Part shown: piece by piece, positions 11,343 through 63,800 of the stretch | Layout of the letters: every line of letters starts with the position of its first letter | Numbering within the stretch: the stretch's first letter is position 1 | Source of the DNA: Candidatus Peribacteraceae bacterium | GTDB taxonomy: Bacteria > Patescibacteriota > Gracilibacteria > Peribacterales > Peribacteraceae | DNA: 64,000 bases | Assembly: GCA_030750465.1 (NCBI GenBank) | Contig: JASMHZ010000002.1 | Location: forward strand, 1,948 to 65,947 | Direction: 5' to 3' | The notes under the pieces: generated by a model | Databases searched by the model: none | Told to the model about the DNA's origin: nothing | Seen by the model: only the letters and a program-made list of their open reading frames with translations | Program-made: the position numbers and the translations under genes

Positions 11343-11450
11343 AATCAACACGCCCCGCTCACGCGGGGCTTTCTACAATCGACAATCAACATCTAAAAAA
11401 ATGTTGAAAGCGCACGGAGTGCGCGTGTCGATTGTCGATTGTTGATTGTC
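11343..11450. repeat. CAATCAACA-scaffold composite hairpin element, copy 1
   Basis: Two inverted units of CAATCAACA-YG-[GC hairpin]-CTTTC.ACAAT. The hairpins are CCCCGC/GCGGGG and GCGCAC/GTGCGC. It lies between convergent stop codons. Confidence 0.7.
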
Positions 11451-13020: not shown

Positions 13021-13152
13021 AACACGCTCTAAACGAGCTCTCAACATGCTTTGCTGTCAACAATCAACACGGCGCCTTCGGCGCCTTTCAACAATTGGCA
13101 TAGTTGATAGTCGATTGTTGATTGTTGAGAGTCGCGCTTTGCGGGACGTGTT
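13021..13152. repeat. CAATCAACA-scaffold composite hairpin element, copy 2
   Basis: The ends are inverted copies of AACACG-[hairpin]-CTCTCAACA. An inner unit reads CAATCAACACG-GCGCC TTCG GGCGC-CTTTCAACAAT. Confidence 0.7.
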
Positions 13153-18776: not shown

Positions 18777-19040
18777 TCAGGACATTTTTCTTCTTCGATT
18801 CGGTACAAGATGCCGGTAGCGAAACATCGTTCCCGAACCCGACTTCAGGTACTTCTCAAACACAAGAGCCTGTTCTTTCGTGGGAAACGAACAAGCAAAT
18901 TTCAGCTTCCAAGGACGATGCTTGGAGGTATGTGGCACCTCTCCGTTATTGTGTTTCTCAAGCCGCTTTTTCACATCCTGCGTCGAGCCAACGTACTGTC
19001 GACCTTCGTCGTTTTCGAGGATGTAGACGTAGTGCCACAT
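18777..19040 (-). CDS. GIY-YIG nuclease superfamily small protein
   Basis: YVYILENDEGRQYVGSTQDVKKRLEKHN is the GIY-YIG core. The length of 87 aa is typical of the stand-alone UPF0213-type proteins. Confidence 0.8.
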   Translation of the reverse strand: MWHYVYILENDEGRQYVGSTQDVKKRLEKHNNGEVPHTSKHRPWKLKFACSFPTKEQALVFEKYLKSGSGTMFRYRHLVPNRRRKMS

Positions 19041-19774: not shown

Positions 19775-21079
19775 TCAGAGATAATTATTCACTGGTATTC
19801 CACCAATAATCACATCAACATCATTTTCTCCAATCTCATTCTCCAGCGTTTGTTTAAGGCCGATTCGCTCCAATACGTCCCTGAATCTTTGTACTGCTCC
19901 TTCCTTAGAAAAATCAGTCATCACAGTAAATTGCTCTAGTCTTTTACCGCTGACGATGATTGATCCATCAGATTGTTTCTCGATCTGGTAGGCACCCATT
20001 TTATTAGAATCATCCAGAGGCTTAAGCGTTGGTATCTTGTCGGGGTCCTCTTTGACCGGTACGCGTTTCTCTCGTTCTTCCAAAACTATCGGATGTATCT
20101 TCTTTGTAAGAAGATCTGTTCCTTCGCGTGTTGCGGAAGAGATGCTCATAAATATATCGATGCCAAGTTTCTTTAGCTCAGTTTCAATTGAATCTGAGTT
20201 ATCTGCAATCAAATCAATTTTGTTAAGTATCACAAATTCTTTCTTTTTCGAAAGGGTAGGGGAGTAAGCCTCCAACTCCTTTCTGATTGCATCGTAATCC
20301 TCTTTAAGTTTTTCTACATTAACTTCGGTTCCTTCAAGTGCACGGCTGACGTCGAGTAAGTGAAGTAATATCCCGCATCGTTCAATGTGCCTTAGGAATT
20401 TATCTCCTAGGCCTTTGCCTTCGCTTGCACCTTCGATGAGTCCTGGAACATCACAGACAATGTAAGAACGGTCCTCGACATCTACAACTCCCAGATTGGG
20501 GACAAGTGTTGTAAATGGATAATCTGCAATCTTTGGTTTAGCTGAACTAATGACCGAGATAAGAGTTGATTTACCAACGCTCGGGTATCCGATGATTCCA
20601 ACATCGGCGACAAGCTTAAGTTCCAGCTTGATAATCTTCTCTTCACCCGGCTCTCCCAATTCTGCAAAGTCCGGTTTTTGCCTGACAGAAGATTTGAAGT
20701 GAGAATTTCCAAAACCTCCTTTGCCTCCGTGGGCAATCACAACTTTCTGACCATTTACAGATAAGTCTGCAAGGTGTTCGCCATTTTCGCCTGTAACAAC
20801 AGTCCCAGGGGGTACCTTTAGCAATAGATCTTCTCCGCCTCTACCATTCATGTTTTTCCCGAGACCCATTTTGCCCTTTGGAGCTCCAAAGCGTTTGTCC
20901 GAGGCGTAGTCGCTTAGGGTATCTGTATTCTCATCTGCAATTAAGATTACATTTCCTCCACCTCCGCCATCGCCTCCATTAGGACCACCTCTGGGTACAT
21001 ACTTTTCCCGCCTGTAGCTTACACAGCCTTTTCCGCCATAGCCTCCGGAAACATCGATGGTGGCTTCATCTAAAAACAT
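19775..21079 (-). CDS. obg: GTPase Obg/CgtA
   Basis: Glycine-rich Obg fold (GGYGGKGCVSYRREKYVPRGGPNGGDGGGGG), G1 motif GYPSVGKST, G3 motif DVPGLIEGA, and a C-terminal OCT domain. Confidence 0.95.
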   Translation of the reverse strand: MFLDEATIDVSGGYGGKGCVSYRREKYVPRGGPNGGDGGGGGNVILIADENTDTLSDYASDKRFGAPKGKMGLGKNMNGRGGEDLLLKVPPGTVVTGENGEHLADLSVNGQKVVIAHGGKGGFGNSHFKSSVRQKPDFAELGEPGEEKIIKLELKLVADVGIIGYPSVGKSTLISVISSAKPKIADYPFTTLVPNLGVVDVEDRSYIVCDVPGLIEGASEGKGLGDKFLRHIERCGILLHLLDVSRALEGTEVNVEKLKEDYDAIRKELEAYSPTLSKKKEFVILNKIDLIADNSDSIETELKKLGIDIFMSISSATREGTDLLTKKIHPIVLEEREKRVPVKEDPDKIPTLKPLDDSNKMGAYQIEKQSDGSIIVSGKRLEQFTVMTDFSKEGAVQRFRDVLERIGLKQTLENEIGENDVDVIIGGIPVNNYL

Positions 21080-21143
21080 GAAAAGGTTAAAAGTTAAAAG
21101 TTAAGAGTGAATAGTTATTTACAATAACAGTAAGAAGTTTAAA

Positions 21144-21173
21144 GTGAATAGTGAATAGTGAATAGTGAATAGT
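21144..21173. repeat. tandem GAATAGT heptamer arm (left arm flanking the four-helix-bundle gene)
   Basis: GT(GAATAGT)x4, complementary to 21552-21583. It abuts the stop codon at 21173-21175. Confidence 0.8.
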
Positions 21174-21526
21174 TAGTTATTCTTCTTAGAAGTTTTCACA
21201 ATTGCGGTTAGCAGTTTTATTAACTCATTCACTTTTATCAATAATTCTTTAACTTCCGATTTTTTGCTTGATCCAACTACGTTGATAAGTTGAAGCCAAT
21301 ATCTGGTTTCTCTCGCCTCCTTTAATGCAATATGCATTTTATGAGCAAAATCTTTTTTGCTTTCTGCATATTGTGCTTCCTGAATATTTGCTCCAATACT
21401 GGTCCCAGATCTAAGTAATTGTTTGCTGATAACAAAAGCCTTTTTATTATTCAGATGACCACAGAATTCTATTATCAAAACGGAGAATTCAAATGATTTT
21501 ACCTCTGCTGGTCCATTTTCTTGCAT
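21173..21526 (-). CDS. four-helix-bundle protein (23S rRNA intervening-sequence protein family)
   Basis: The family core QLLRSGTSIGANIQEAQYAESKKDFAHKMHIALKEARETRYWLQLI, and a length of 117 aa. Confidence 0.85.
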   Translation of the reverse strand: MQENGPAEVKSFEFSVLIIEFCGHLNNKKAFVISKQLLRSGTSIGANIQEAQYAESKKDFAHKMHIALKEARETRYWLQLINVVGSSKKSEVKELLIKVNELIKLLTAIVKTSKKNN

Positions 21527-21551
21527 AGCGGATCAATATACATAAAAAGGA

Positions 21552-21583
21552 CACTATTCACTATTAACTATTCACTATTCATT
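21552..21583. repeat. ACTATTC heptamer arm (right arm, inverted copy of 21144-21173)
   Basis: The reverse complement of cactattcactattaactattcactattcatt is aatGAATAGTGAATAGTTAATAGTGAATAGTg. Confidence 0.8.
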
Positions 21584-21619
21584 AAATCTTCATAAGCAAA
21601 AATATCGAGATTATACTCA

Positions 21620-21648
21620 TTGACGAGCTAGTATTAGCACTCTATACT
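21620..21648 (+). promoter_or_regulatory. sigma-70-type promoter of dnaK (TTGACG-N17-TATACT)
   Basis: -35 at 21620-21625 and -10 at 21643-21648, about 30 nt upstream of the dnaK ATG. Confidence 0.6.
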
Positions 21649-21660
21649 TCCGACTGCTAA
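21634..21660 (+). promoter_or_regulatory. CIRCE operator (HrcA binding site)
   Basis: TTAGCACTC-N9-GACTGCTAA compared with the consensus TTAGCACTC-N9-GAGTGCTAA (1 mismatch). It overlaps the dnaK promoter. Confidence 0.8.
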
Positions 21661-25130: not shown

Positions 25131-25175
25131 AGATTTAGGGGAATGTTGGAGATACTTTATCAAGAACTCGATAAA

Positions 25176-25210
25176 GAGTGAATAGTGAATAGTTAATAGT
25201 GAATAGTATT
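25176..25210. repeat. solo GAATAGT-family arm
   Basis: GAATAGTGAATAGTTAATAGTGAATAGT is 28 nt identical to the reverse complement of the arm at 21552-21583. No partner arm is nearby. Confidence 0.75.
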
Positions 25211-26133: not shown

Positions 26134-26232
26134 ATAGCTTTTAGCTTTTAGCTTGGTTAGCTTTAATTAGTGGCAATAAATTGGTGATTACAGGCTGAAG
26201 CTAGTGAAGCTAAAAGCTATAAGCTAAGCTAT
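26134..26232. repeat. inverted repeat built from AGCTTTT/AGCTAAA words in a divergent promoter region
   Basis: Left arm atagcttttagcttttagcttggttagcttta. Right arm gaagctagtgaagctaaaagctataagctaagctat. Confidence 0.7.
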
Positions 26233-28594: not shown

Positions 28595-28728
28595 TGACAG
28601 TCGACAATCAACAATCAACACGTCCGCCTAGGCGGACTCTCAACAATCTATAGCTATATATTGGCTGAATTAGTTGATTGTTGAATGTTGAAAGCGAGTC
28701 CCCAAAAGGGACGAGCATGTTGATTGTC
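28595..28728. repeat. CAATCAACA-scaffold composite hairpin element, copy 3
   Basis: CAATCAACAATCAACACG-GTCCGCC TA GGCGGAC-CTCTCAACAAT, plus an inverted unit with the hairpin GTCCC/GGGAC. The right end overlaps the stop codon at 28727-28729. Confidence 0.7.
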
Positions 28729-30755: not shown

Positions 30756-30832
30756 GGGCCAGTAGCTCAGTTGGTTAGAGCACCGGACTTATAAACCGGC
30801 GGTCGGTGGTTCAAATCCACCCTGGCCCACCA
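30756..30832 (+). tRNA. tRNA-Ile (anticodon TAT), CCA encoded
   Basis: Acceptor stem GGGCCAG/CTGGCCC, anticodon loop CTTATAA, T-loop TTCAAAT. There is an A31-A39 mismatch at the base of the anticodon stem. Confidence 0.8.
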
Positions 30833-35002: not shown

Positions 35003-35113
35003 TTTGTGAGGATAGAATAATGGAATATTGGAGTATTGGTAACTTGTTTGTTGCTGAAGATGATATTGAAACAATATCCCAATATTCTATTATTCCAATA
35101 TTCGAATAGGTTA

Positions 35114-38577: not shown

Positions 38578-38734
38578 ACCAAACACGCCCTAAAGGGCTT
38601 TTAACACGCTCATCCGCCCGAGGAGGCGGATTCGCTTTCAACAATCAACAATGACAAATGTGGAGAGCGAAGAAGCGTGCCTGCCGCGCCGTAGCCCGCA
38701 GGCGAAGGATGGTTGATTGTTGATTGTCGATTTG
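38578..38734. repeat. CAATCAACA-scaffold composite hairpin element, copy 4
   Basis: AACACG-CCC TAAA GGG-CTTTTAACACG-...ATCCGCC/GGCGGAT...-CTTTCAACAATCAACAAT, and at the far end an inverted GGTTGATTGTTGATTGTCGAT. Confidence 0.7.
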
Positions 38735-42433: not shown

Positions 42434-43648
42434 ATGACTTCATCCTTCGGAAACGTCTGCGCAATTATAGGCGCTCAGTGGGGGGATGAGGGGAAGGGAA
42501 AGGTAGTCGACATTGTAGCCCAGCACTACGATGTTATTGCACGTGCTTGCGGGGGCGCGAATGCGGGCCACACGATTGTAATTGACGGTGTTCAGCATAT
42601 ATTCCACTTACTTCCATCTGGATGCTTTCATGAAGGTAAACCAATTATTTTGGGTGCAGGGATGGTTTTGCATTTACCAACGCTTTTGGAGGAGATCGAG
42701 GAAATGAAGAAGGCAGGATTTGATGTTCTGCCAAGACTTTATATTTCGTCCGAAGCTCATATTCTTTTTGAATATCACAAAAAGCTAGATGGAGTATTCG
42801 AGGAAGCTAGAGCAAAAAAGAAAGGGAAGGGGATTGGAACTACGATGCGCGGAATAGGTCCTGCATATCAAGATAAGGCTGCAAGGACGGGCATCAGAAT
42901 GGAATCACTCGATGCAGATCTTACATCAGAGTTAAAAGAAAGAGCTGAGAGCATTAAAGAACAATTTGGTTTGGACATCGATATAAATATTGAATTGAAG
43001 AATTTAGAAGATGCGAGGAGTGTTCTAAAAGGATGTGTAACTGATACGGTTTCACTTATTCATGAGTATTTGGAGGATGGTAAAAGCATTCTGATTGAGG
43101 GAGCTCAGGGAGCGTTGTTGGATTTGGATCACGGTTCATACCCATATGTAACAAGCAGTTCAACCACAATTTCCGGTGCATTACAGGGACTGGGACTTCC
43201 TCCAAAGGTGCTTAAGTCCTGTATTGGTATCGCCAAGGCGTATTGCACCCGTGTGGGAGAAGGTGAGTTCTCATCAGAGGCTAGTGAAGACGATGGCAAC
43301 AGAATCAGAGAAAGAGGAGGCGAATACGGCGCAACAACAGGAAGGCCCAGAAGGTGCGGGTGGTTAAGCGTTCCTGATTTGCTAAAAGTGGTAAGGCTAA
43401 ATGGATACACTCACTGGAATATTACAAAACTGGATGTCCTAGATGAGGAAGATCAAATTCCGGTAATGATGTCAGATGGATACCAGAATCTGCCTGGCTG
43501 GAAAGCATCTACAAAAGGACTTACATCGTTTGATGAACTTCCCGAAAATGCAAAGAAATATATTCAGTTCATCGAAGAACAAACAGGAGTTCCTGTTGCT
43601 TTTATTGGAACCGGGCCGGAGAGAGAGGAGATGATTATGAAAGAATGA
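42434..43648 (+). CDS. purA: adenylosuccinate synthetase
   Basis: GAQWGDEGKGK P-loop, GTTMRGIGPAY and GATTGRPRRCGW. The ORF track lists a GTG at 42425. Confidence 0.95.
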   Translation: MTSSFGNVCAIIGAQWGDEGKGKVVDIVAQHYDVIARACGGANAGHTIVIDGVQHIFHLLPSGCFHEGKPIILGAGMVLHLPTLLEEIEEMKKAGFDVLPRLYISSEAHILFEYHKKLDGVFEEARAKKKGKGIGTTMRGIGPAYQDKAARTGIRMESLDADLTSELKERAESIKEQFGLDIDINIELKNLEDARSVLKGCVTDTVSLIHEYLEDGKSILIEGAQGALLDLDHGSYPYVTSSSTTISGALQGLGLPPKVLKSCIGIAKAYCTRVGEGEFSSEASEDDGNRIRERGGEYGATTGRPRRCGWLSVPDLLKVVRLNGYTHWNITKLDVLDEEDQIPVMMSDGYQNLPGWKASTKGLTSFDELPENAKKYIQFIEEQTGVPVAFIGTGPEREEMIMKE

Positions 43649-43805
43649 ATAAAAGAAGGAAAGAACTAAAGAAAGAAAGGAAGATTAAAAAGAGGAAAAG
43701 AATTGAAGAAAGAAGGAAAGAATGAAAGCTTTTTTCTTTAATAATCTTTTTCCTTAAATCTTTTATCTTTCTTTTTCTCTTTTATTCTTTCTATCTTTCA
43801 TTCTT
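43649..43805. repeat. purine-arm/pyrimidine-arm hairpin element R1
   Basis: An A/G-only arm, centre AAAGCTTTT, then a T/C-only arm. 43708-43789 is the exact reverse complement of 49029-49110. It lies between convergent stop codons. Confidence 0.8.
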
Positions 43806-44690
43806 TTACCCCGCCCTTTCCCCCCACTTCAATTTCTTCCTAAGCGTCGCAAAGAATGTGTCCTGTTTTCGCCTGAGGAATTTTACCGTATTTGGATGGA
43901 CATGCGCCTCGACCTTGTCTCCGCCTTCCAGTTCGACATAAACTTGTCCGTCAATTGTTAAAACAACATCCGCGTCCTGGTATTTATTTGGTTTAGTATC
44001 TACAACAACTTCTACTTTAGATTCACCAGGGATAACTATGGGTTTTTGGCTAAAGCTATATGGATTAAGAGGCGTTAAGATGGTTGCGTTGATAGTTGGA
44101 TATACAAGAGGTCCTCCTGCTGCAAGAGAATAGGCTGTGGATCCTGTCGGCGTTGAAATAATCAGACCATCGGCATGATAGCTTGCCAATTCTTCTCCGT
44201 TTACAGTTGTTTTTAAATTAACAAGCCTGGCGATGGTGCCTTGATTGATAACAGCTTCATTTAAAGCATGCCCTTCCAAAAGCACTTTGCCGTTCCTTCT
44301 TGCTTTCACGTGCAGAAGTCCGCGCTCTTCTATGACTCCACTGCCATTTAAAAGCTTTGGAATTAATTCTTCAGCTTCATCTACGTTAATCTCAGCCAAA
44401 AAACCTACAGTTCCCCAATTAACACTTAAGATTGGTATATCAAAGTCTTTCAGTTCTCTCACTGATCTAAGTATGGTTCCGTCTCCGCCTATGACTATTA
44501 GAAGATCGATATCTTCGATAGCCTTCATCTTCATTAAATCCTTAGAGCATTTAAGATGGCTTAATCTTTCGGAGTCCACGCAAATATCAACATCAAGTTT
44601 CTTTAAAATATCGATAACTCCTGCAACGGCTTCTTCTTTCTGGTCGAGTCGCGATTTAGCTGTAATGCCTATATGCTTATATTTAATCAT
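43806..44690 (-). CDS. nadK: NAD kinase
   Basis: GGDGT motif (VIGGDGTILRS), NEAVI, and DGLIISTPTGSTAYSLAAGGP. Confidence 0.93.
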   Translation of the reverse strand: MIKYKHIGITAKSRLDQKEEAVAGVIDILKKLDVDICVDSERLSHLKCSKDLMKMKAIEDIDLLIVIGGDGTILRSVRELKDFDIPILSVNWGTVGFLAEINVDEAEELIPKLLNGSGVIEERGLLHVKARRNGKVLLEGHALNEAVINQGTIARLVNLKTTVNGEELASYHADGLIISTPTGSTAYSLAAGGPLVYPTINATILTPLNPYSFSQKPIVIPGESKVEVVVDTKPNKYQDADVVLTIDGQVYVELEGGDKVEAHVHPNTVKFLRRKQDTFFATLRKKLKWGERAG

Positions 44691-46677: not shown

Positions 46678-46810
46678 TATAAAAGAACGAAAGAAAGAAA
46701 TGCTTCAAGAGAAAAAGGAAGATTAAAATGAAAAATGTTTTATCTTCTGATTTTTTTATCTTTGGGCTTCCTTTCGTTCTTTCATTCTTTCGCTCTTTCG
46801 TTCTTTATTT
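46678..46810. repeat. purine-arm/pyrimidine-arm hairpin element R2
   Basis: Same architecture as R1. Its reverse complement aligns with R3 over ~120 nt, with the first 33 nt exact. Confidence 0.8.
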
Positions 46811-47817: not shown

Positions 47818-47936
47818 AATAAAGAACGAAAGAGCGAAAGAATGAAAGAATGAAAGGAAATCTAAAAGATCAAAAGATTAAAGCATTTTTCCTTTCAATC
47901 TTCCTTTTTCTCTTGATACATTTCTTTCTTTCGTTC
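47818..47936. repeat. purine-arm/pyrimidine-arm hairpin element R3
   Basis: An inverted copy of R2 on the other side of fbp. Confidence 0.8.
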
Positions 47937-48956
47937 TTATACCATCATTTCATTTATTTCAACCACCATTTCCGTAACTCTCATCGCGTATCCCCATTCG
48001 TTGTCATACCAGCTGAGGATTTGAGCAGCTTTCCCGTCAACAACTTTGGTTGAAAGGGCATCTACAATTGATGAATGGGGGTTTGTCTGGAAATCTATTG
48101 ATACACATTCATCGTCAGAATAATCCAATACCTCAACCATAGGACCGCTCTGGGAAGCGCTTTTTAGAAGTGAGTTAATTTCTTCGGTTGAAGTATTATT
48201 TTTAAGGAAAAATGCCATGTATGCGCAACTGACTGTTGGCACTGGTACTCGAAATGCCATACCATCGATCTTCCCTTTCAGATGCGGAAATATATCTGCA
48301 CATGCTTTCACTGCTCCGGTTTTTGTAGGAATTATTGAAAGTGTGGCAGCTCTGGTTCTCCTTAGATCGCCTTCCTTATTATTATTGTCCAGAAGATTTT
48401 GCGAAGCTGTAAATGCGTGAACGGAATTCACGAGCAGATTTTCTATTTCAAATGTTTCATCAATAACTTTGATCACTGGAGCTATGCAGTTAGTAGTGCA
48501 AGATGCATTAGATACAATTTCCATGTCGGGTTTAATTTCTTTGTGATTAACTCCTTTAACAAATGTCGGAGTATCATCTTTCATCGGAGCTGTGACAATT
48601 ACTCTCTTTGCACCGGCAAGAAGATGACCGTTTGCAAGTTCCCTCGTTCTAAATTTGCCTGTAGCTTCAACAACAATATCGACATCCAATTCTTTCCACG
48701 GGCATTTAGATGGATCTTTTTCTTTAACAACTCGCACAGTTTTTCCATTAACAATTATATTATTCTCATCTTTGACGGATATTTCTCCTTTAAATTTTCT
48801 ATGTAGAGAATCATATTTAAGAAGATAAGCTCTCATTTCGGAAGATGTAGATGCATTTATTCCTACAACCTGCACACTATCTCCAAACCTATCTTCGAAT
48901 TGTCTGTGTACATTTCTTCCTATACGGCCGTAGCCGTTAATTGCAACATTAATCAT
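47937..48956 (-). CDS. gap: glyceraldehyde-3-phosphate dehydrogenase, type I (paralog 2)
   Basis: INGYGRIGRN, the catalytic SNASCTTNCIAP, and WYDNEWGYA. Confidence 0.93.
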   Translation of the reverse strand: MINVAINGYGRIGRNVHRQFEDRFGDSVQVVGINASTSSEMRAYLLKYDSLHRKFKGEISVKDENNIIVNGKTVRVVKEKDPSKCPWKELDVDIVVEATGKFRTRELANGHLLAGAKRVIVTAPMKDDTPTFVKGVNHKEIKPDMEIVSNASCTTNCIAPVIKVIDETFEIENLLVNSVHAFTASQNLLDNNNKEGDLRRTRAATLSIIPTKTGAVKACADIFPHLKGKIDGMAFRVPVPTVSCAYMAFFLKNNTSTEEINSLLKSASQSGPMVEVLDYSDDECVSIDFQTNPHSSIVDALSTKVVDGKAAQILSWYDNEWGYAMRVTEMVVEINEMMV

Positions 48957-49007: not shown

Positions 49008-49152
49008 TATAAAAGAAGGGAAGAAGGGAAGAATAAAAGAGAAAAAGAAAGATAAAAGATTTAAGGAAAAAGATTATTAAAGAAAAAAGCTTTCATTCTT
49101 TCCTTCTTTCGTTCTTTTATTCTTTCTTCAGTTCTTTCCTTCTTTCGTTCTT
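49008..49152. repeat. purine-arm/pyrimidine-arm hairpin element R4
   Basis: Contains the 82-nt exact inverted match to R1. Confidence 0.8.
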
Positions 49153-50214
49153 TTAACCAAATAGCCCTATGACCAATCCTAAAAATGCTACAAATCCTCC
49201 AATTATCCAAAATCGCATTGTAACTTTACTCTCCCCCCATTCCAAAGCTTCAAAATGATGGTGGATTGGAGCTGCTTTAAACACTTTCTTTCCTCCTCTG
49301 AATTTTTTACTTGTTAGTTGAATAATCACAGAAAGCATTTCTATAACAAATATAAATCCGATAAAAGGCAGTACCAATACGTTATCAGTCATCATAGCGA
49401 TCACCCCCAGAGTTCCCCCAAGAGCCAGAGAACCGGTATCACCCATGAAGAAAAGTGCAGGAGGCACATTGTGCCAAAGGAAGGCAGCTACTGCTCCGCT
49501 ACATGCTGCACAGAAAGCGGCAAGTACGGCGAGTCCGCTTAGATAAGCCAAAAGACTGAAGGCACCAAATGCTATGACAAGAAGTCCGCCAGCCAAACCA
49601 TCAAGTCCGTCGGTTACATTGACCGCATTTGCTGTGCCAATAATGATGAATATAAATATTGGTATGTACCAAATTCCGACCGTCATATCTCCAACGTATG
49701 GGATGTGAATCTGGTTGTAGTCCAGCTTGAAGTAAAACCAAAAGGCTCCAACAATACTAATTGTAAGAAGAGTGATAATTTTTGGAAGCCAATCAAGACC
49801 ACGCTTTTTCCCAGATCCAATTATGTTTAAATAATCATCAACTCCACCAAGGGCTGCAAATGCAATTAGTGTGAATAATGGAAGGTAAACTTGGCCCCTT
49901 TGCAGAAGAGAATGATCAACAAGTCCGAAATAAGAAAGTATTCTGGAAAATATAATTGTAAGAAGAATTGATCCCCATATAAGAATACCTCCCATTGTAG
50001 GAGTTCCTTTCTTATGCTGATGAAACTTTCTAAAGACTGATGCTTCTCTTCCGTCGACAGTTTCTATTCTTAATTGTTTTCCAAGCTTGTTTCTTCTTAA
50101 GAAAGAAATAAACGGAGGAGTGAGTACAAGACCAGCAATAAATGCAAAGAATGCATAACCTAATATTGCTGACAGAGGAATCTCAGGGCGTATTGGAATG
50201 AATGGGTCGATCAT
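49153..50214 (-). CDS. mraY: phospho-N-acetylmuramoyl-pentapeptide transferase MraY
   Basis: KKGTPTMGGILI and NAVNVTDGLDGLAGG, with 10 TM helices. Confidence 0.95.
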   Translation of the reverse strand: MIDPFIPIRPEIPLSAILGYAFFAFIAGLVLTPPFISFLRRNKLGKQLRIETVDGREASVFRKFHQHKKGTPTMGGILIWGSILLTIIFSRILSYFGLVDHSLLQRGQVYLPLFTLIAFAALGGVDDYLNIIGSGKKRGLDWLPKIITLLTISIVGAFWFYFKLDYNQIHIPYVGDMTVGIWYIPIFIFIIIGTANAVNVTDGLDGLAGGLLVIAFGAFSLLAYLSGLAVLAAFCAACSGAVAAFLWHNVPPALFFMGDTGSLALGGTLGVIAMMTDNVLVLPFIGFIFVIEMLSVIIQLTSKKFRGGKKVFKAAPIHHHFEALEWGESKVTMRFWIIGGFVAFLGLVIGLFG

Positions 50215-50217
50215 GGC

Positions 50218-50388
50218 TGAAGAATAGTAAAAAGAAGGAAAGAAGGGAAGAGTAAAAAGAAAGAATAAAAGATAGAAAGAAGGGAAGGAAGATTAAAAAG
50301 AAAAAAATGCTTTAATTCTTTCTCTCTTTCCTTCTTCCTTTCTTTCTTCAGTTCTTTCTCTCTTTTTAAGTATTTCTTTCCGCCGTTC
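50218..50388. repeat. purine-arm/pyrimidine-arm hairpin element R5
   Basis: The same architecture, with centre GAAGATTAAAAAGAAAAAAATGCTTTAATTC. Confidence 0.75.
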
Positions 50389-53242: not shown

Positions 53243-53306
53243 AAAGAAAGAAAGAGAGAAAGAAGGAAAGAAAAAAAGAACTAAAGAAGGGAAGATGAGA
53301 AGATTA
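53243..53306. repeat. R6a: purine arm of a split hairpin element
   Basis: An A/G-only arm ending GAAGATTAA, the same centre-proximal word as in R1, R2 and R5. It abuts the stop codon of the four-helix-bundle gene. Confidence 0.7.
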
Positions 53307-53666
53307 ATCACGAGTAAGTTTGTCGACCATCGAACATAGTATGTAAAACAATTCTTTCGCCTCATTCAATAGATAATCTCTCTCCTTATTTAGGATTATA
53401 TTTCTACCAGTATCGATTAACTCCAGCCAATGAGTACTTTCCTTTGCTTCTTTCTTTGATATTTTCATATACTTTATTCCATCTTTTTTACTTAGACCTT
53501 CGCCTGCTTCTATATAGTTTGCTCCTATTGAGCCGGACGAACGAACTAATTGTTTTGAGTATTCATTATTTGAAACAGAATATGGTAATTTATTAACAAA
53601 ATCTCTAACGTCTTTGCCAAAATTTCTTGACCTTAATCCAAAAGAGAAAACTTTTATTTTGTTCAT
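53304..53666 (-). CDS. four-helix-bundle protein (23S rRNA intervening-sequence protein family)
   Basis: QLVRSSGSIGANYIEAGEGLSKKDGIKYMKISKKEAKESTHWLELI. I take the start at MNKIK (53666). The ORF-track N-terminal extension is a translation of the repeat arm. Confidence 0.85.
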   Translation of the reverse strand: MNKIKVFSFGLRSRNFGKDVRDFVNKLPYSVSNNEYSKQLVRSSGSIGANYIEAGEGLSKKDGIKYMKISKKEAKESTHWLELIDTGRNIILNKERDYLLNEAKELFYILCSMVDKLTRD

Positions 53667-53689
53667 AGGGTGGATGATCCTACACCTTA

Positions 53690-53751
53690 ATATAAAAGAT
53701 AAAAAGAAAATTCCTTCTTTCTTCAGTTCTTCCTCTCTTTCTTTCTTTTTA
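53690..53751. repeat. R6b: pyrimidine arm of the split hairpin element
   Basis: ttccttctttcttcagttcttcctctctttctttcttttt is complementary in kind to R6a. The word cttcagttct also occurs in R4 and R5. Confidence 0.7.
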
Positions 53752-54720: not shown

Positions 54721-54879
54721 ATGGAAAGAACGGAAGAAAGAAAGACTAGAAAGAGAAAAAGGAAGTGGGAAAGAACGAAAGAATAGAAGCTTTTTTTGCT
54801 TAAAATCTTCTTCCTTTATCCTTCCTTTCGATCTTTCTCTCTTTCCTTCTTCCTCTCTTTCATTCTTTCGTTCTTTTAT
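54721..54879. repeat. purine-arm/pyrimidine-arm hairpin element R7
   Basis: The same architecture, with centre AGAAGCTTTTTTTGCTT, lying between convergent stop codons. Confidence 0.75.
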
Positions 54880-57800
54880 TTATATGTCTCTCCACCTTCG
54901 ACGCCACATCATCCACCACCACTCGACATTAACTGCTGCAAGTAATAGTGCGATCAGCCAGAACATCCAGTGAATGCCTCGTCCTCCGTTGACCTTGTCG
55001 TACAGAGGATCGTTTACAATTACGTGGATTGACGGAAGTGTTACGTCAATAACATCAATTCTCTCTTCTTCTATAAGTGTTGGAGGCTCAAGAATAAATG
55101 TTCTCTTTTCGACTTGTTGTCCGCTCTTATGAATTTCAATAACGTGTGCGCCAACTTCTACCTTGTGGAACGTAGCCATTCCTTCATCGTTTGTAATCGC
55201 AACCTTTGGAGTAGAGAAGAGCACAACCGGAGTTCTTCTGTATGGATTACCCATATCTGTAAATACTCCAATATTAAGCGAAGCAAGTAATGTTTGGTTG
55301 TTCTCCCTTACAATCTGCGTCTTGAAGTGTCTTGGTTCCGGAATAGGTTTGGAATGATCCTTAAGGTACTCTCTCGCTTTCCATGCGAGCGCATTAGTAT
55401 TTTCTGCGGTTCTCTTTCCGTAGAATTCAATTGATTCCTTTGTGATCAAAACGGTGTCCGTAACTTCATCGGAAACAGCAACACTAACTCTGGATACGGC
55501 CTTTAGTCCTTTTTCTGATGCGTCGGTTGCAATTATCAACGAATCTTTGAATTGGCCTGCAATTTGCTTTGTATTCTGGAGTGTCTTGCTTGCCAATAGA
55601 ACTCCGGCGTCTTTGGTGACTTCGATGCTCTTGTCTGCGAATGTAATGCCAAGTTCTTTCACGCTGTCGCTTGCGATCTTGGTTGTCAGATCTTCTTTGG
55701 TATCAATATATTTTGCGATTCTCTTAGCTTGGTCGGATGCAGCAAACAGAATTGCCTTTGTACTTTCCTGAGCTACTTTGGTTGCAAGTCCTGCCTCTGT
55801 ATCTACGAAGTCGCTGATTCTATTTACTGTATTTACACCCTTTGCCATCTGAGTACCAGCATATTTGGCTGAGTGTACCAAGTTATCCTGTAGTACTTTG
55901 GCAGTACCTACCACTACAACTCCATATTTTCCTAGCTTTTCTGATGCAAATAGAATTGCCGCATCTTTTCTATAAGCAGCCCTATCAATTACATCATTTG
56001 CCTGATCCTTTGCAAATCCAAATAGAATTCTCTTTGCGAGCTGATCGCCCTTGGAATCAAGTTCAGACTTCTTAAGAGCAACCCTCCTGTCTCTTGCAAT
56101 CTTATCTGTTGCGATCTGGTAATTGCCTGCAATATTGACTCCGGCATCTCTGAATGCGTCTGCAACTCTGCCAACGGCATTCTTGACTCCGCCGAATGCT
56201 ATCTGCGTTGTACCACTGATATTTTCTTCAGCACCCCTAAACGATTCTGCGATTCTATCCGATCCTTCCTTGAGCTTACCAAATGCTAATTGTGATGTGC
56301 CAGCAATATTCTCACCTGCTCCCCTGAACGCTGTAGCTGTTCTCTTCGCAAGCTGATCTATTGCTTTCCTGGCTATTCTACTAACAGGTTTTACGAATGG
56401 CATTATCTTGACCGATGGAATCGCAGGATTGAATATCATGCTGACTGCATGATCAGGCATTTCCCTGATTCTTCGCTCAGCATCTCTGATCCTTTGTTCC
56501 TTGGTTGCCTCAGCACTCTCTCGTCTCTCCTCACGCCTCTTAGCAAGATCAATTACTGCCTCATGCCTTGGTGTCACTGTCGGTCTCCTATCTTCTGCAT
56601 CTTCTGATTCCTCTGCTTCCTCCGGAGATGAAGCGTGAACCTGAACAATAGTTATTTCTCTATTTGCAACATCCACACCTCCGCCTATATTCGTTCCTTC
56701 ACCGCGATGAGAGCCGGTGTCCCCGCTGCTTGTAGTTGTGTCGGCAGCTGCAGTTCTGCTGTATCGGAAGTCCACCGTTTCCGATGATCCTGCAGTAGTA
56801 ACAGTAAATGATGCGCTGTTTGCATCACGCGCCGTGTATCCGGATGGGGGATCGATGGCTATCACATATGAACCGCTAGAAATGTTCAGGCCGCTAATGG
56901 AATATATTCCCTCGCTGTTTGTCGTACCAGAAGCGCTTACTGCTCCTCCTGTCGCGCTGGTTCCGATAACAGATATTTCTCTGCCAGGGAAGTAAGACTC
57001 GCCGACGTCGTAAGTACTGTCATTATCCGCATCTTCGTAAGCGCGTCCCGTGACTGTTGATTCATCAATGTAACCAAATTCAAGTGTAATTGCACTTCCT
57101 GTACCCACAACAATACTTCCAGAGGTGGAGTAAGTTGTGGATATATAATCAGACGGAATAATGCCGGCACTATCGGTCAACAGTAAACTGTATCCCGACA
57201 GTGAGCTCAAGGCGGCACCGCTGAACGCGAAAGTGCCGACAAAGTCCGTCTGCGTAGTTAGGGCGAGAGTTGCCCCCGTTGTTGTCGTTCCCGACAACCG
57301 GAGACTCACCCCCGAGAATGCATCACTCTCCCCGGCGTCGTGTACGCCGTCACCGTCTGTATCTGTCCAAACTTTTCCGTTAATGGCACCTGTGCCTGTC
57401 CTGTACTTCATTAAGAATGTACCGGAAGGCATATGGGTACCTGTCCCCATTGCGTTTTGATTTTGATTTGAGAGCGTTACCGAGTGTGAAGCACCCTTAG
57501 TAACACTTATAGTGTAATTACCGCTGCTTGCAGGCACTTCGTAGAAGCTGAATGCGCCTGTTGATGTTGAAGCAGCGGTAAGGCTCAAGCTGGCTCCCGT
57601 AACTGTGGAACCTGTAAGCGTTACCGTCGCTCCAATAATTGCATTTGTATCACCGGCATCCTCGACTCCATCTCCATCTTCATCCCAGAATACAACTCCA
57701 CTCATTGTTCCATACCAGCTGTATCCGTAGTTGATTGTAATTGTTGATCCGGTTTCTACAATATTTCCACCTGAGCTTGTGAAGTTCGTATTCCTGTATC

Positions 57801-60800
57801 CCGCAGAAACCGTAGCGCCGCTTACAGAAACCGTGTAACCCGTAGAATCGCTTCTGTAAACCGGTGTGAGTGTGTATGAACCGGACGTAGAAGCAGTAGA
57901 TCCTGTAATCGTAAGGGCGGCTCCGGTGATTGTATTTCCTGTCAATTCTATAACAACACTCGTCAGGCCTGATGTTTCCCCGGCATCTTTAACGCCGTCA
58001 TAATCCTTGTCGTACCAAACGTTACCAAGTATATCTCCGGTTCCTGTGAAGTAACCAAACAGCCAGTTTGTATTGTTATCACTATCAGTTGATCCGCTTG
58101 GCGTAAGAAGAGAACCTCCGGTTGCATCATTATCGGTTACATCCAAGAGTTGCAGATCCTGAGTTCCCGCGCTTGCGTCCAGAATTAGCTTAGACGCACT
58201 ACCGGACTTGGTTGTAGTAAGAGTAAGTAAGTTGGCTGATGCTCCCTTAAGCGTAAGCGCTCCAGAAACTGACTGTCTTGAGGTGTAATCGAACTTCAAA
58301 GTATCATTCGAACTTCCCGTTGAAGTTAAGTTCCAGAACACAGTTGATCCGCTTATTGTCTGATCACTTCCATCAAAGTTAACTGTTCCACCTCCATCAT
58401 GAGTAAAGTCTCCCATATTTAACCAGTTACCTGACATTGTGATTGATCCTGAGCTGACCAAATTACCGGTGTAGTTCTTTAAGTCTCCTGCGATGTCGAG
58501 TGATGCTCCAAGTGTGTAGTATCCTGAACCGGTTGATGGATTACCCGAATTGAGGTTAGCTACCTCAGAAGCGCTAAGGGCTCTGTTGTAGATTCGTACG
58601 TCGTCGATGAGGCCGTTGAATGGCCTGAACTGACCGTCCGTGCTATCTCTTCCAATGCTCAGAACAGAGCTGTAGTTTGTAGTAGCATCGCTATCAGTTG
58701 TGTTTGCGACGGATGTTGCATCCCTATACATGTTCCACGAGCTTCCGTTTCGCACAAGGGCAACGTGGAACCAGGTATTTTGGGTGTATGCAGATGCATC
58801 GTTTTCCCCAAAGTTTACAACAAATCCAGTGTTATAATCCCAGAAATTCAATCCTGGAACCCCTTGAGATGAATCTCGCCAGAGGAATTCCCACAGGTGA
58901 TCGTTGTCCGGTCCATGTGAAACGATTGCATGTTGAGCATTTATATCTTCTATACTGATCCATGAGCTGATGCTGAAGTTTTGACTGCCAAAATCCCATA
59001 AGTCACTGTCAGAGACACTTACATAATCATCCGTCCCATCAAAATCAAGAGCGTACGCATTGTAGAAGTTGGTTGTTCCGGTTCCTGCGGATATATCAAC
59101 CCAATCTTCTGCATCCATATTCGTAAGCGTTCCATCATTACTATTCGCACTTGAATCTCTTGCATTCGTCCCCGCGCCTTCGTCGAATTTCCAATATCCA
59201 ACTAAGCCGTTATCAAGAGTGATGTTATTGAATGTACTTCCGGACAAAGTCTTTGAGTCCCCATTATCAACAGTTCCATCAAGTAACAGAGTTCCCGTTC
59301 CTGCTGTAAATGATCCGTTTTCAGCTTCTATCCAGCTCCCGGAAAGCGTAATTGTTTGTCCGTTTGTGGTAACAAGCGTTCCTCCGGTAATTGTAAGGTC
59401 TCCTGCAATTCCAACGTTTCCTCCAATATGGAATGAAGTGTCGGATGCTCCTGCGAGATTTACATTGTTGTAATTCTCACCCGGCAAGTATCTGGTTCCT
59501 GTAAGGGAGGCCAGAACCACTCTTCCAGTGCCTGCGCTAAACGCCCCTCCGCCGTCTATCCATGAGCCGGAGATTGTGAGAGTTTGTGCGTTTGTTGTCT
59601 TAAGTGTTCCTCCAGTCATTGTCAGATCTCCGTTGACTTCCAGATTTGTAATTGAACCTGTAAGGTGGAACTCTGTGCCGGCGTTATTTACTCCAAGGTT
59701 GAAGTAGGTAGTGTCGATCAGTGTGCTACCACTGTCATTGGTTTGCCCTGTGTAGTTGATCGTGCTTCCTGCTCCATCAAGCTCTGTTTTAAACGTGCCA
59801 CTGATCGTATTCCCTGTGCCACCAAGGACAAGCGTTCCACTATTTGTCATTTCTGTGCCGCTTTGTACATCCAGCACTGCCCCCGTTCCTCCTGCAGTGA
59901 GCGTGACGCCGGTGCCGACGTGGAATATGGCAGCTCCCGAAAGGGTGATCGACCCGACTATCACGCCGCCGCTGTGTGATGCATGGATAAGCTTTGTCTT
60001 TGCAGTTGTCGAAGCGCCGTGATTACCGATAACGAGCTCGCCTCCACCACTCCCATCATTCGCATCCTCCAGGTACACCGTCCCCGCGGCTCCATCGTCG
60101 TTTCCTGTAGTTCCCTTCGCTTCGATCTTCACGTCACTGAAGTCCGTTCCACTCGAGAGCACGATGGCAACGCGTCCTCCTCCTCCCCCACCATATGAAG
60201 CTGCTCCCGCATTGGCAGTGATCGTCCCGGAACCGGTGAATACAGTTGTTTTGATATTGATGGATCCTCCCGCATCGCCACCGTTACTGCCTGTGAGACT
60301 AGCGGCGTTGGCAGACATTGTACCATTCACGATGACTGATCCACTTGCGCTGATGATGATGGCACCACCACCGGCTGTACCATACATGCCGCCGCTCCCG
60401 AGGTACTCTGGATTCGTCACGGAACCGTATACCGGTCCGACACCTCCAGCCGTACCGTTATCACCACCTTCTCCACCGTGCGATGCACCATTTCGATCGC
60501 TGTTGTTGCCCGTACCCCAACCTGGCCCATCTTCTGCTCCGAATCCGAATTCATTTGCAGTGAGAGTGCCACCTAACTGCACATTCAATGATGTACCGGC
60601 ATTGGTGAGAAGCAGTTTTGCCACTTTACCCTTGCCTCCGTTCTGCTGAGGATCCGCGTCCAGTTCGAGCGTGCCATCGTTCTGAATGGTGATGGAGCCA
60701 AATGTGTAGTTATTTGTTCCATCGGTACCCAGGCGAAGTGTGGTGATGCCGGTAGAAGATCCAATGACAAGATGGTTTCTACTTGTTGCATCGAAGTAGA

Positions 60801-63800
60801 CTGTTCCTGCGCGGCCGCTACCACCACCGTTTGCTTGCAAAGTCCCGCGGAATCCATTGGTTGTTACACCGTTCAAACCTATGCGACCACCTCCGCCTCC
60901 ACCATATGCACTTGCATCTCCATTTGCTTTGATAACACCTGCACCAGTGAGCGTATTTGCTGTGATGTTGATGGAACCACCCGCAGCACCGCTGCAGCTG
61001 CCACCGCATGACGCACCTCCGTTTGCCGACAGGAGACCATCTACGGTTATCGTGCCGTTTACATTCAGAATAATGGCACCTCCACCTGCCTTCCCAAAGA
61101 TGCCGCCACTCCCGAGAGAAGAGGGATCAGTGAAAGAACCATAGGTATCACCCGCATCGTTATCTTTCACATGTTCACCGCCTCTCCCACCGTGCGATAC
61201 GCCGTTGCGATCACCGACAACGGCATTCGCACCCGGTCCGCTGTCGGCACCAAATCCTCCTTCATCCGCCGTAATCGTCCCCGTCCCCGTTCCATCTCCA
61301 AACACCGTCAGATTCCCATCCACCCGAATACTCTGACCGCTCCCATTCCCGCTCGTACTTGATCTTGCAACAGTTACGTACGCACCGCTATTCACATCCA
61401 TATTCCCAACGACATGCAGGTCATTCTCCTCGTCCTGCGTCCAGGTGATTCCTGTTGTTGATGTGCCGGAATGCGTCAGCGCTCCGCTGATCGAGAGGGG
61501 GGTGGAGATTGTGAGAGAGCCCGTAAAACTGTCTGTAACTGTAAAGTTATTTGCGAATGCGGCTGTGTCTATTACAACATTCGTCTGTCCCGTACCATCA
61601 AACAGCGCATTATCATCATGCGTAGGCACAGTGTCGCTTGTCCAGTTTTCAGCCGTACTCCAATTGGTATCTGCTCCGCCTGCATCCCATGTTCTGGTTA
61701 ATCTGTATGTCCAGTTTGTAGTGTTTCCACTGTCTGTGCTATTTACACCGGCAGCAAGAGTAGTGCCTCCCGAAGCGTCATTATCTTTAACATCCAGGTA
61801 ACTAAGTATCTGAGTGCCAGCACTGGCATCAAGTAAGAGCTTAGATGCTGACCCGCTCTTCGAGCTCTCAACACTCAACAATCCACCATCAACACCTTCC
61901 AACACAAGTGAGCCGCTGATGTTCTGCCTTGCTGTGTAATCAAATGTAAGCGTATCGGCTGTACTACCTGTTGATTGTAGTTTCCAGAAGACAGTGCTTC
62001 CGGATATAGTCTGATTGGAACCATCAAACAGAACAGTTCCAGATCCATCATGCGTAAAGTCTCCAACATTAAGCCAGTTTCCACTCATTGTAATTGATCC
62101 GGAGCTTACGAGGTTTCCGGTGTAGTTTGCGAAGTCTCCTGCGATATCAAGGCTTGCACCGAGTGTGTAATAACCGGAGCCTGTTGATGGATTGCCATTC
62201 GCGAGGTTAGCTACTTCGGAAGCCGCGAGTGCACGGTTGTAGATTCGTACGTCGTCGAGGAGGCCGTCGAATGCCCGTGTCTTATTGTCATAATTCCCTA
62301 TATGTGCCGTTTGGGTTGTAAACGCCGGTAGTGTTGCTCCGATCGTCCCACTGAATGTGTCGATAGTGACCTGAGAACCATTAATGAATAGCTTGAGCCG
62401 ATTACTGTTGCCACTTGCAGCTCCATCAAATACAACTGTAAGCTGATGCCAGCTGCCAGCTGACACATAAGGAGAATAGTCATCGACAACACCATATCCT
62501 CCTGATCCATCTCCGAATTCCAGCCAAAGAGATCCGTCTGAATAAGTATATATTCGTATGTCACTGGATGAATCAATTGCGAGCGCAAACAAGCCGTCAA
62601 ACTGATCAATTACGTCTTGCTGGAACCAGGTCGAAAACGTGAAAGCTGAAGCCCCTGCGATATCAGCAACGATCGTTTCGCCATCAACATAATCATTCGC
62701 CCCGTCAAACTCCAATGCATAAGGATTATAGAAATTAGTCGTTCCTGTTCCCGCGCTTATATCCACCCAATCCTCCGCATCCATATTTGTTAATGTTCCA
62801 TCATTTCCATTTGCACTACTGTCCCTCGCAACCGTCCCCGCGCCTTCATCAAACTTCCAGTATCCTACAAGGCCGTTATCAAGAGTTAGATTATTAAACC
62901 CAACATTCTCGTAAATTATCTCCTGATTCGCCTGATCCGGTGTACCGTCGAAGGTAATGGTGCCACTACCAGCAACAAATTGACCTCCATAGTTCAACCA
63001 GCTTCCACTAACTGTTAACCCTAACCCTAACCCATTCGTCGAGATACCACCTGTATACATCGATAAATCACCATTAATATCAAGGGAACTCCCTAGCGAG
63101 TAAACTCCGCTTCCTGTGTATGCGTTACCGTTTGCGAGGCTACCTACTTCGGAAGAGGAGAGTGCACGATTGTAGATGCGGACGTCGTCGATGAGGCCAT
63201 CTGTTTTATATGTATTAGTTGCTTTACCAATGGTACAAGATTGGAAATTCGTAATACTCCCAGTTTTTCCTGTTGCAGAACCAACTGATACTCCATTTTT
63301 GTAGATGGTCATTGTTGATCCATCCCATGTGCCTACGATATGCAACCACTGATCGTAGACCATTTGTTCACTGACATTCAGATCGAATACGCCATCAAGA
63401 TAGAGGTACAACCAGTTACCGGAAATATCTCTATCACCACCAAGCCAATACCCATTTGAAATGCTGCTTGGATCAGAGCTGATAAATGTTGGTCGTGATG
63501 TTGAAGGCACGTTGATCCAGTTTGATAGCGTGATTGCATCTCTTATATCCAGACTCGCGTCTGTTCCACAATCCACATAATCATCACTTCCATCAAAGTC
63601 CAAACTATATGGATTGTAGAACGTCGTCCCAGTATTTCCTGCAGGTGTGGTATTCAGGATCCAATCCTGATCGGCATCCATACCGGTGAGCGTTCCATGG
63701 TTTCCATGTCGTGAGCTATCACGTGCAACAGTAGAACCGGAGCCATCATCGAACTTCCAGTATCCAACCAACCCATCATCAATAGTTAGGTTGCTGAAGG

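Follow-up and report, generated by a model that had tools for sequence, protein, structure and literature searches.

A 64-kb window (64,000 nt, positions 1,948 to 65,947 of contig JASMHZ010000002.1, GenBank assembly GCA_030750465.1; G+C content 42%) was analysed from the genome of a marine member of the Peribacteraceae, which belongs to the Peregrinibacteria in the Candidate Phyla Radiation (CPR). Between dnaK and obg, the window includes an open reading frame (ORF) for a four-helix-bundle (4HB) protein that is enclosed by two inverted arrays of tandem heptamers. The 4HB ORF (21173-21526, minus strand) encodes a protein of 117 amino acids, of which residues 10-107 match PF05635 in a profile search (E=1.3e-25, 90.1 bits, cut-off 33.8). 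The protein also matches TIGR02436 (E=6e-31, 106.9 bits, cut-off 24) and the sequence of PDB entry 2RLD, which has five chains (E=2.7e-25). All 22 columns that are invariant in 37 homologues, represented by the core motif QLLRSGTSIGANI.EA ... KEA.ET.YW, are present in it.

In the sense of the gene (minus strand), the 3' arm (arm A) is (ACUAUUC)4 at 21144-21173, and an outer extension, ACUUUAAACUUCU, enlarges the feature to 21131-21173. The 5' arm (arm B, 21552-21583) is a (GAAUAGU)n array that includes one UAAUAGU variant unit and is extended outwards by GAAGAUUUAAU to give a feature of 21552-21595. Tandem Repeats Finder (TRF) reported arm A as AGTGAAT x4.4 at 21143-21173 with 100% matches, and arm B as CACTATT x4.3 at 21552-21581 with 91% matches. 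The initial annotation of this region, which described GT(GAATAGT)x4 touching the stop codon and a complementary (ACTATTC)n arm just before the start, was correct on both counts: base 21173 is both the end of arm A and the final base of the TAA stop, a one-base overlap, and an inverted-repeat search paired 21145-21173 with 21553-21581, with 28 of 29 nt complementary (97%) at a distance of 379 nt. When 21120-21610 was folded as minus-strand RNA, the check suggested in that annotation, both the minimum free energy and the centroid structures held a long-range arm-arm stem around the 4HB ORF (-117.8 kcal/mol, z=-4.05; 0 of 100 shuffled sequences folded as well). The 4HB gene is located in the loop of a 29-45-bp stem, the strands of which are inverted arrays of four to five tandem heptamers. 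The 14-mer GAATAGTGAATAGT, with up to two mismatches, occurs 11 times against 0.64 expected, a number reached by 0 of 100 shuffles, and all 11 matches fall within three GAATAGT-type arms and one degenerate unit at 21102. GAATAGT arrays are therefore restricted to three linked arms in 64 kb.

A short conserved leader (21527-21551, minus strand) separates arm B from the 4HB ATG and includes TG-TATATT at 21535-21542. A TG(n)TATAyT/TACAAT/TATAAT box is kept 8-12 nt before the 4HB ATG in six of the loci used for comparison, which are designated here by L numbers (L001, L021, L031, L034, L040 and L041), and may be an extended -10-like promoter element, although a simple scan returned no promoter on the minus strand. 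Downstream, the co-directional obg gene (19775-21079, minus strand; Pfam GTP1_OBG at the identical locus) starts 93 nt past the 4HB stop, and arm A is positioned within the obg leader. Immediately 5' of the obg ATG (21079) is an additional array, (AACUUUU)5 in gene sense (21082-21117, minus strand; TRF period 7, 5.1 copies). AACTTTT-type units form the 3' arm in L002 and L031, and (TAAAAGT)n the 5' arm in L034; thus, this array is probably a relic of an older arm type. On the dnaK side, the cassette is limited by a dnaK promoter, TTGACG-17-TATACT (21620-21648, plus strand; 10/12 matches in a promoter scan; feature 21620-21660), and an overlapping operator, TTAGCACTC-N9-GACTGCTAA (21634-21660), which from its consensus we take to be a CIRCE (controlling inverted repeat of chaperone expression) element. 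Operator and promoter are kept in L001, L003 and L027-L040, and the operator in all relatives fetched.

The closest public Obg proteins (95%, 86% and 76% identical) are from Peribacter metagenome-assembled genomes. An identical 4HB protein is found on at least 24 metagenome contigs under the label 'four helix bundle protein [Candidatus Peribacteraceae]', and at least 10 contigs carry the identical gene with identical arms, always in the order dnaK(-), 4HB(+), obg(+), with no copy-number variation among them. Five diverged Peribacteraceae (4HB 64-79%, Obg 61-95% and DnaK 79-98% identical to the window) retain this order with inverted arms, and in the diverged relatives both the 4HB stop and the end of the 3' arm are placed 22-40 nt from the obg ATG. 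The heptamer units differ between genomes yet match across both sides of each cassette. The window and L001 (UBA2144) have GAATAGT in the 5' arm and ACTATTC in the 3' arm. In L041, GAAGAAT and GAATAAT are matched by ATTCTTC and ATTATTC; in L031, GAAAAGT, TAAGAGT and TAATAGT by ACTTTTC, ACTCTTA and ACTTTTA; and in L040, GAAAAAT, GAATAGT and GAATAAT by ATTTTTC, ACTATTC and ATTATTC. The arms are kept through either selection or copying. The cross-genome matrix of arm matches in the Peribacteraceae is diagonal only in part because the units are related between genomes, and the family-wide null used below is the stronger test. As 4HB identity roughly tracks host divergence, the gene has been inherited mainly vertically, and it evolves faster than its neighbours.

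The comparison of obg-dnaK spacers thus revealed the gene together with arms in relatives, no relative with the gene at this locus and no arms, and one empty spacer. Some contigs are incomplete. L002 (Obg 86% identical) starts within the 4HB gene, and only its 3' arm is readable. In L034-L037 (DnaK 94% identical), the C-terminus of the 4HB protein is replaced (2800-2932) and no 3' arm is seen, an absence that is uninformative as these contigs stop ~75 nt past the 4HB stop. That four contigs from different samples all end at this distance suggests a repeat or insertion behind the C-terminus.

The empty spacer is in L003 (assembly CAZYBL01; Obg 76-77% identical), where the region between dnaK and obg contains neither a 4HB gene nor heptamer arms. 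It spans ~380 nt (69-450) and includes G+C-rich hairpins, e.g. gcagccggga...tcccggct and gccgggagccacggctcccggc, with no Rfam match; a search of the window and L003 at the Rfam gathering thresholds returned tRNAs alone. A 4HB gene 77-79% identical to that of the window is found at another locus in L023, which is from the same assembly as L003, and in five further contigs (together L021-L026). Its context there is an rve-like gene(-), 4HB(+) and an ORF of 475 aa(+) that begins 38 nt downstream. In the alignment of the window with the relocated copy, homology begins inside the 5' arm (TTAATAGTGAA.AGTG) and stops just past the 3' arm, and arm A has its homologue in the 3' arm of the L021 copy. 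As the homology is bounded by the arms, the arms move with the gene; they belong to the gene and not to the site. The alignment indicates that the cassette can relocate together with its arms.

A second cassette is present in the window at 53243-53748 (minus strand), with arms at 53243-53295 and 53711-53748 and a coding sequence that is most likely 53304-53667. The two 4HB proteins are distant paralogues (phmmer E=9.5e-12; E=9e-21 with the A1 profile). The arms of the second cassette, of the AAAGAA/TTCTTT type, have no sequence relation to the GAATAGT arms, and the arm, ORF, inverted arm layout is the same, as noted initially. Six further AAAGAA/TTCTTT hairpins, none with an ORF (43639-43806, 46680-46806, 47818-47941, 49010-49155, 50217-50365 and 54724-54880; 130-185 nt, dG -34 to -60 kcal/mol, 70-92% alike), occupy nearly every spacer of a 12-kb stretch. 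They are found between convergent and tandem genes, and the AAAGAA-type arm is purine-rich. The sole divergent spacer in the stretch from 43.6 to 54.9 kb is the split one that contains the second 4HB gene. Since this gene has a single AAAGAA-type arm on one side and a single TTCTTT-type arm on the other, whereas the other such spacers have both, it appears to occupy the loop of an AAAGAA-type hairpin.

The initial annotation argued that two instances with different arms point to a property of the gene family and not to a coincidence. The local pair does not establish this, as tandem 7/8-mer hairpins without an ORF are common in the intergenic spacers of this genome whatever the gene content, and on local evidence a generic intergenic hairpin (a terminator, an insulator or an element like the repetitive extragenic palindromes (REP)) that holds the 4HB gene in its loop by accident would be possible. 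Many spacers of the window contain tandem-repeat hairpins without a 4HB gene, and orthologous spacers retain hairpins with unrelated units. The question was addressed across the family by scanning public metagenome contigs with the alignment of 37 sequences, which gave 80 independent loci from other environments (L042-L121) with 4HB proteins 43-59% identical to the query. For the 75 loci with usable flanks, the 150 nt preceding the start were compared with the 150 nt following the stop, and the highest-scoring complementary match without gaps was taken; mismatched flanks served as the null. Inverted flanks exceeded the 95th percentile of the null at 50 of the 75 4HB loci, the 99th percentile at 36 and the null maximum at 12. 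Among complete neighbouring genes of the same loci, only 1 of 59 passed the threshold, and the same flanks in direct orientation did so in 9 of 75 cases. Thus, in other lineages the arms accompany the 4HB gene and not its neighbours, and this largely refutes an accidental association; the arms also move with the gene, both 4HB genes of the window are in loops, and a simple terminator scan found no terminator at either arm. A generic hairpin is accordingly considered very unlikely. Together with the co-varying arms of the orthologues and the relocation of arms with the gene, these data establish the layout as a property of the gene family.

The arms of the family are nearly always tandem repeats. 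Of ~50 arms, 37-40 (~80%) have a period of 7 and 9-11 a period of 8, the median copy numbers of the two arms are 4.6 (interquartile range 4.1-5.3) and 4.4 (3.7-4.7), and the median arm length is 32 nt. The units are locus-specific, with 37 different units among 48, e.g. GGGTTTT, TGTTGAA, AATGGAG, GTTCGGA and CAGTTGA. The family itself is large, as ~8000 significant hits were obtained among the scored candidates.

The arm layout is not only family-wide but also polar and found in transcribed positions. On the sense strand, the 5' arm contains more G than C in 50 of 55 loci (p=2e-10), i.e. the 5' side is C-poor, and this polarity argues for a strand-specific role at the level of RNA or single strands. 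Co-directional neighbours prevail both upstream (54 loci versus 7) and downstream (46 versus 16). The arms fill the spacers: the median gap between the stop of the upstream gene and the arm is -3.5 nt, and that between the arm and the following start is +3 nt. Flanking operon partners include an ABC ATPase and a MacB permease, mevalonate diphosphate decarboxylase and a GHMP kinase, thiolase and acyl-CoA dehydrogenase, and a low-molecular-weight (LMW) phosphatase and an SBF transporter. The typical cassette is therefore inserted between operon cistrons and must share their transcript. The co-directional ORF upstream runs into the 5' arm and ends there in 22 of 38 loci. Stops in all three frames are found in the 5' arm of 26 of 55 loci and in the 3' arm of 7 of 55, and the three-frame stops of the arms may terminate the host gene.

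The same data bear on the suggestion that the cassette is an invertible, phase-variable segment that is flipped at its inverted arms. Inverted repeats of ~30 bp around a 0.4-kb segment are the signature by which invertons are called, and the cassette resembles it. However, the identical gene has one and the same orientation in all of the 10 independent contigs that carry it, genes of the family are co-oriented with their neighbours as described above, flipping would scramble the G over C polarity, and there is no adjacent recombinase gene. This explanation is regarded as exceedingly improbable.

A solo arm with the same units (arm C, 25176-25210, plus strand; TRF 25177-25207) is located upstream of gap and reads (ACUAUUC)n in the sense of the gap mRNA. 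It is identical to arm A at 28 of 29 positions, and its segment 25179-25207 is complementary to arm B (21553-21581) at 29 of 29, i.e. better than arm A (28/29), with an extension to 40 nt at 90%. The initial annotation rightly recognised this arm but saw in it a possible excised or empty site, which the comparison with relatives does not bear out. Arm C is kept upstream of gap in UBA2144 (L001 1697-1732), no remnant of a partner arm is left in the window, and the orthologous gap spacer of L041 contains a full ORF-less hairpin (2181-2270), AATGAAGAATGAATAATGAATAATGA, a 30-nt loop and then ATTCTTCATTATTCATTATTCATTATT. The L041 hairpin is built from the arm units of L041 itself and has 29 nt in common with the 5' arm of the L041 cassette; L040 has no array in the orthologous gap spacer. 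Arm C is most plausibly one half of a cognate hairpin without an ORF that evolves in concert with the arms of the cassette. A palindrome, CTTTATCAAGAACTCGATAAAG (25155-25178), which has the counterpart ctttatcaagttcttgataaag in L001, is located between arm C and the start of gap and may be an operator. It was also considered whether the three (ACTATTC)n arrays, all of which point toward a gene, are upstream operators of obg, dnaK and gap. This was set aside because in the family the cassette lies between co-directional genes and the sequence of the unit is not conserved.

Cognate gene-less hairpins are not confined to the Peribacteraceae. In L104, from an unrelated lineage, a cassette at 254-709 has (CAGTTGA)n arms, an ORF-less hairpin of the same units (1096-1183) lies 385 nt further on, and the pair brackets an intervening segment as arms B and C bracket the region from dnaK to gap in the window. 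An ORF-less hairpin with cassette units is also found near the cassette in L090, and extra copies of arm units are present in 6 of 52 loci. Loci with two 4HB copies are rare; besides the window, only 1 of 113 loci with a family hit (L065) has two, which corresponds to 1 of the 80 loci of the scan.

The number and period of the units raise the possibility that the arms are binding arrays for the homopentamer of the encoded protein, with one heptamer per subunit in the manner of TRAP on its triplet repeats, on RNA or DNA. Binding would serve autoregulation or would regulate the flanking genes and cognate ORF-less hairpins such as that in the gap leader. Avd, the homologue from diversity-generating retroelements (DGRs), itself binds nucleic acid. 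The copy number is tightly peaked at four to five per arm, the period is fixed at 7 or, less often, 8, the arms have strand polarity, and each paralogue has its own units, which are common to the cognate gene-less arrays. Members of the family crystallise as pentamers (2RLD, with its five chains, and Xanthomonas S23p, cited in PMC4990558), and Avd relatives cooperate with a reverse transcriptase that makes cDNA from an RNA template. Against this, the diversity of the units (37/48) contrasts with the near-invariant core of the protein and its 22 invariant columns, and binding by itself leaves the inverted, complementary layout unexplained. Binding arrays are therefore judged improbable.

The relocation and the gene-less hairpins could also indicate a mobile element at the DNA level, in which the arms are terminal inverted repeats or hairpin/cruciform sites for transposition, homing or cassette exchange. 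The enzyme would be either the 4HB protein or one of the host, the RNA stem would be a by-product, and the ORF-less hairpins would be target sites or derivatives like miniature inverted-repeat transposable elements. Such an element would be compatible with the RNA-level reading developed below. The gene moved with its arms, terminal inverted repeats bound the relocated unit with homology ending at the outer ends of the arms, and the dnaK-obg site is empty in the same assembly. Same-unit ORF-less hairpins near cassettes (L041, L104 and L090), the loci with extra units, and the arm type that the second 4HB gene of the window shares with at least six ORF-less hairpins in 12 kb point in the same direction. 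An origin of the intervening sequences (IVSs) of rRNA as transposon remnants or mobile elements has also long been proposed (cited in PMC4990558). On the other hand, the cassette stays at one locus while Obg identity falls to 61%, and 4HB identity tracks that of the host. No target-site duplication is visible at the relocated L021 copy, and profile searches revealed no transposase-like domain in the 117-aa protein. Multiple or identical copies are rare, and the pair in the window are distant paralogues. Three identical copies on Nostoc flagelliforme plasmids, which were considered as a guide to the cassette ends, lie within larger segmental duplications and were uninformative. A DNA-level mobile element is therefore possible but rather unlikely.

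The closest known parallel is the IVS of rRNA, found in Leptospira, Coxiella, Xanthomonas, Brucella and CPR bacteria, in which a protein of the same family is encoded in the loop. In Coxiella burnetii, the terminal inverted repeats of the 428-nt IVS of the 23S rRNA form a 28-bp stem, the loop of which carries the S23p ORF; 2-3 tandem GACAGAT heptamers precede the ORF, and their number varies by strain; the IVS is excised by RNase III, and its ORF is reported to be decaying (PMC4990558). In Xanthomonas, five four-helix bundles of S23p assemble into a homopentamer (cited in PMC4990558), and rRNA insertions of CPR bacteria encode ORFs of the 23S_rRNA_IVP family (10.1101/2024.02.27.582315). The cassette in the window shares with these IVSs the terminal stem of ~28 bp, the loop of ~0.4 kb, the element size of ~430-440 nt and the heptamers in the 5' arm. 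It differs in being located between obg and dnaK and not in an rRNA helix, and its ORF, unlike the reportedly decaying one of Coxiella, is intact and shows conservation between species. The anatomy of the cassette thus agrees with that of an IVS in every respect except location in rRNA.

The reading we favour, with about even confidence, is that the element is an IVS-type cassette outside rRNA, situated in the obg leader, the arms of which would pair in RNA and, by analogy with rRNA IVSs, which are excised from the precursor RNA and not followed by re-ligation of its ends, be processed by RNase III. A transcript would run from the spacer between dnaK and the 4HB gene through obg, and the (GAAUAGU)n 5' arm would pair with the (ACUAUUC)n 3' arm so that the 4HB ORF is looped out. 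A duplex of at least 29 bp would be compatible with an RNase III substrate. Cleavage of this duplex, as in rRNA IVSs, would release or insulate the 4HB mRNA from the obg message and leave the host transcript usable. The tandem units would permit pairing in several registers, and both arms might drift in concert through slippage combined with compensatory change or templated correction. The ORF-less hairpins with the same units would then be the gene-less relatives of the cassette, and the solo arm half of one of them.

Several observations weigh against an RNA-level IVS-type cassette. No significant arms were found at 25 of the 75 4HB loci, and the 3' arm of L001 has only two units. The upstream neighbour here, dnaK, is divergent, unlike at most family loci, and a simple sigma-70 scan found no minus-strand promoter upstream of arm B. 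Were the TG-TATATT box a promoter, the 4HB mRNA would have almost no leader and lack the 5' arm. Finally, G.U mismatches between the arms in the sense strand were not in excess over A.C mismatches (42 vs 52) in a test that is weakened by unit heterogeneity and register shifts. There is thus no direct signature of RNA-level pairing, and inverted co-variation would be expected equally from DNA-level repeats or gene conversion.

The similarity to other systems is partial. To our knowledge, inverted tandem-heptamer arms are not a described feature of DGRs. Avd has a homologous pentameric four-helix-bundle fold, and PF05635, to which it is related, is the commonest DGR-associated Pfam family (PMC10053308). 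However, no reverse transcriptase, template or variable repeat is adjacent to the 4HB gene of the window (~3 kb on each side). The genes called within ~3 kb at the identical locus encode GAPDH, HSP70, OBG, GIY-YIG and an arginase-family protein, accompanied by ORFs of 126, 46 and 53 aa with no Pfam match, and the only repeats found are the heptamer arms.

Correia/NEMIS elements of Neisseria, REP/BIME and ERIC are also elements with inverted ends that are located in transcribed spacers, form long RNA hairpins and occur as dispersed gene-less copies, and Correia hairpins are cut by RNase III. The cassette is likewise short, with inverted ends, in transcribed spacers and predicted to form an RNA hairpin. 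Those elements are non-coding, with conserved ends and target duplications, whereas the cassette has an ORF and locus-specific 7/8-mers. Short tandemly repeated repetitive (STRR) sequences of cyanobacteria are intergenic tandem heptamers that are described as dispersed repeat families and not as inverted pairs around one gene family. At one Nostoc locus, the 4HB gene is flanked by such tandem arrays. This case from a cultured organism, plasmid pNFSY05 of N. flagelliforme (L122), has (AATTCAAA)4 at 1376-1474, a gene annotated as 'four helix bundle protein' and (TTTTGAAT)4 at 1839-1875, an arrangement shared by the three plasmid copies mentioned above; the arms consist of octamers, and their G/C polarity is reversed compared with the norm of the family.

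Neither the protein family nor the rRNA IVS is new, and the heptamers of Coxiella have been described before. In the literature searched, which did not extend to most subscription journals, no description was found of arms around free-standing genes of the family; neither their regular location within inverted arrays of four to five locus-specific 7/8-mers, nor the position between operon genes, nor the cognate gene-less hairpins were found described. A more speculative generalisation, which we consider doubtful, is that PF05635 cassettes represent one widespread and hitherto unrecognised class of intervening elements in transcribed spacers, whether in an operon, an mRNA leader or an rRNA helix, the last being where they first came to notice as IVSs. 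Each subunit of the homopentamer would read one of the four to five heptamers in the arms of its own cassette, hairpins of the same units but without a gene would be non-autonomous partners, and spread might use an RNA intermediate, a possibility considered because of the kinship of the family with Avd, the cofactor of a reverse transcriptase.

The questions of how the rRNA IVS originated and what role its conserved ORF plays date from the early 1990s. Should free-standing genes share the stem of tandem heptamers and the operon position, the rRNA IVS would be the most visible case of a general element, and that element would be accessible in tractable organisms such as Bacteroides and Nostoc. 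Cultured carriers are Bacteroides thetaiotaomicron (BT_0352, the protein of 2RLD), Nostoc PCC 7120 (alr0549) and N. flagelliforme (COO91_RS40980). Thousands of 'hypothetical' spacers would be recognised as structured, at the level of RNA or DNA, the arrays would account for the breaks that assemblies show at them, and the role of the Avd-like fold in settings other than DGRs would become approachable.

Other hairpin arrays in the window contain no 4HB gene. A TAGCTTT hairpin (26135-26226) occupies the divergent spacer between the genes for the CCA-adding enzyme and AP endonuclease 2. The same spacer has arrays of unrelated units at 1232-1324 in L041 (GTTACTAC) and at 767-798 in L040 (TTTCGAA). 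Inverted arms that pair are present in the window and in L041, and the unit of L040 is self-complementary. In these three genomes, the structure of the array is conserved and its sequence is not. ACAATCA/TGATTGT arrays are found at four sites (11426-11450, 13103-13128, 28604-28692 and 38638-38732), with paired inverted arms at 28.6 and 38.7 kb, and those at 13.1, 28.6 and 38.7 kb adjoin or surround GC-rich hairpins. A GAATATTG/CAATATTC hairpin is present at one site (35015-35108).

Further features of the window include an ORF of 87 aa of the GIY-YIG family downstream of obg (18777-19040, minus strand), which adjoins tRNA-Ala and tRNA-Phe. A tRNA-Ile with the anticodon UAU (30756-30832) is an uncommon bacterial solution for reading AUA, and a single ORF of 3031 aa spans 54880-63975 on the minus strand.

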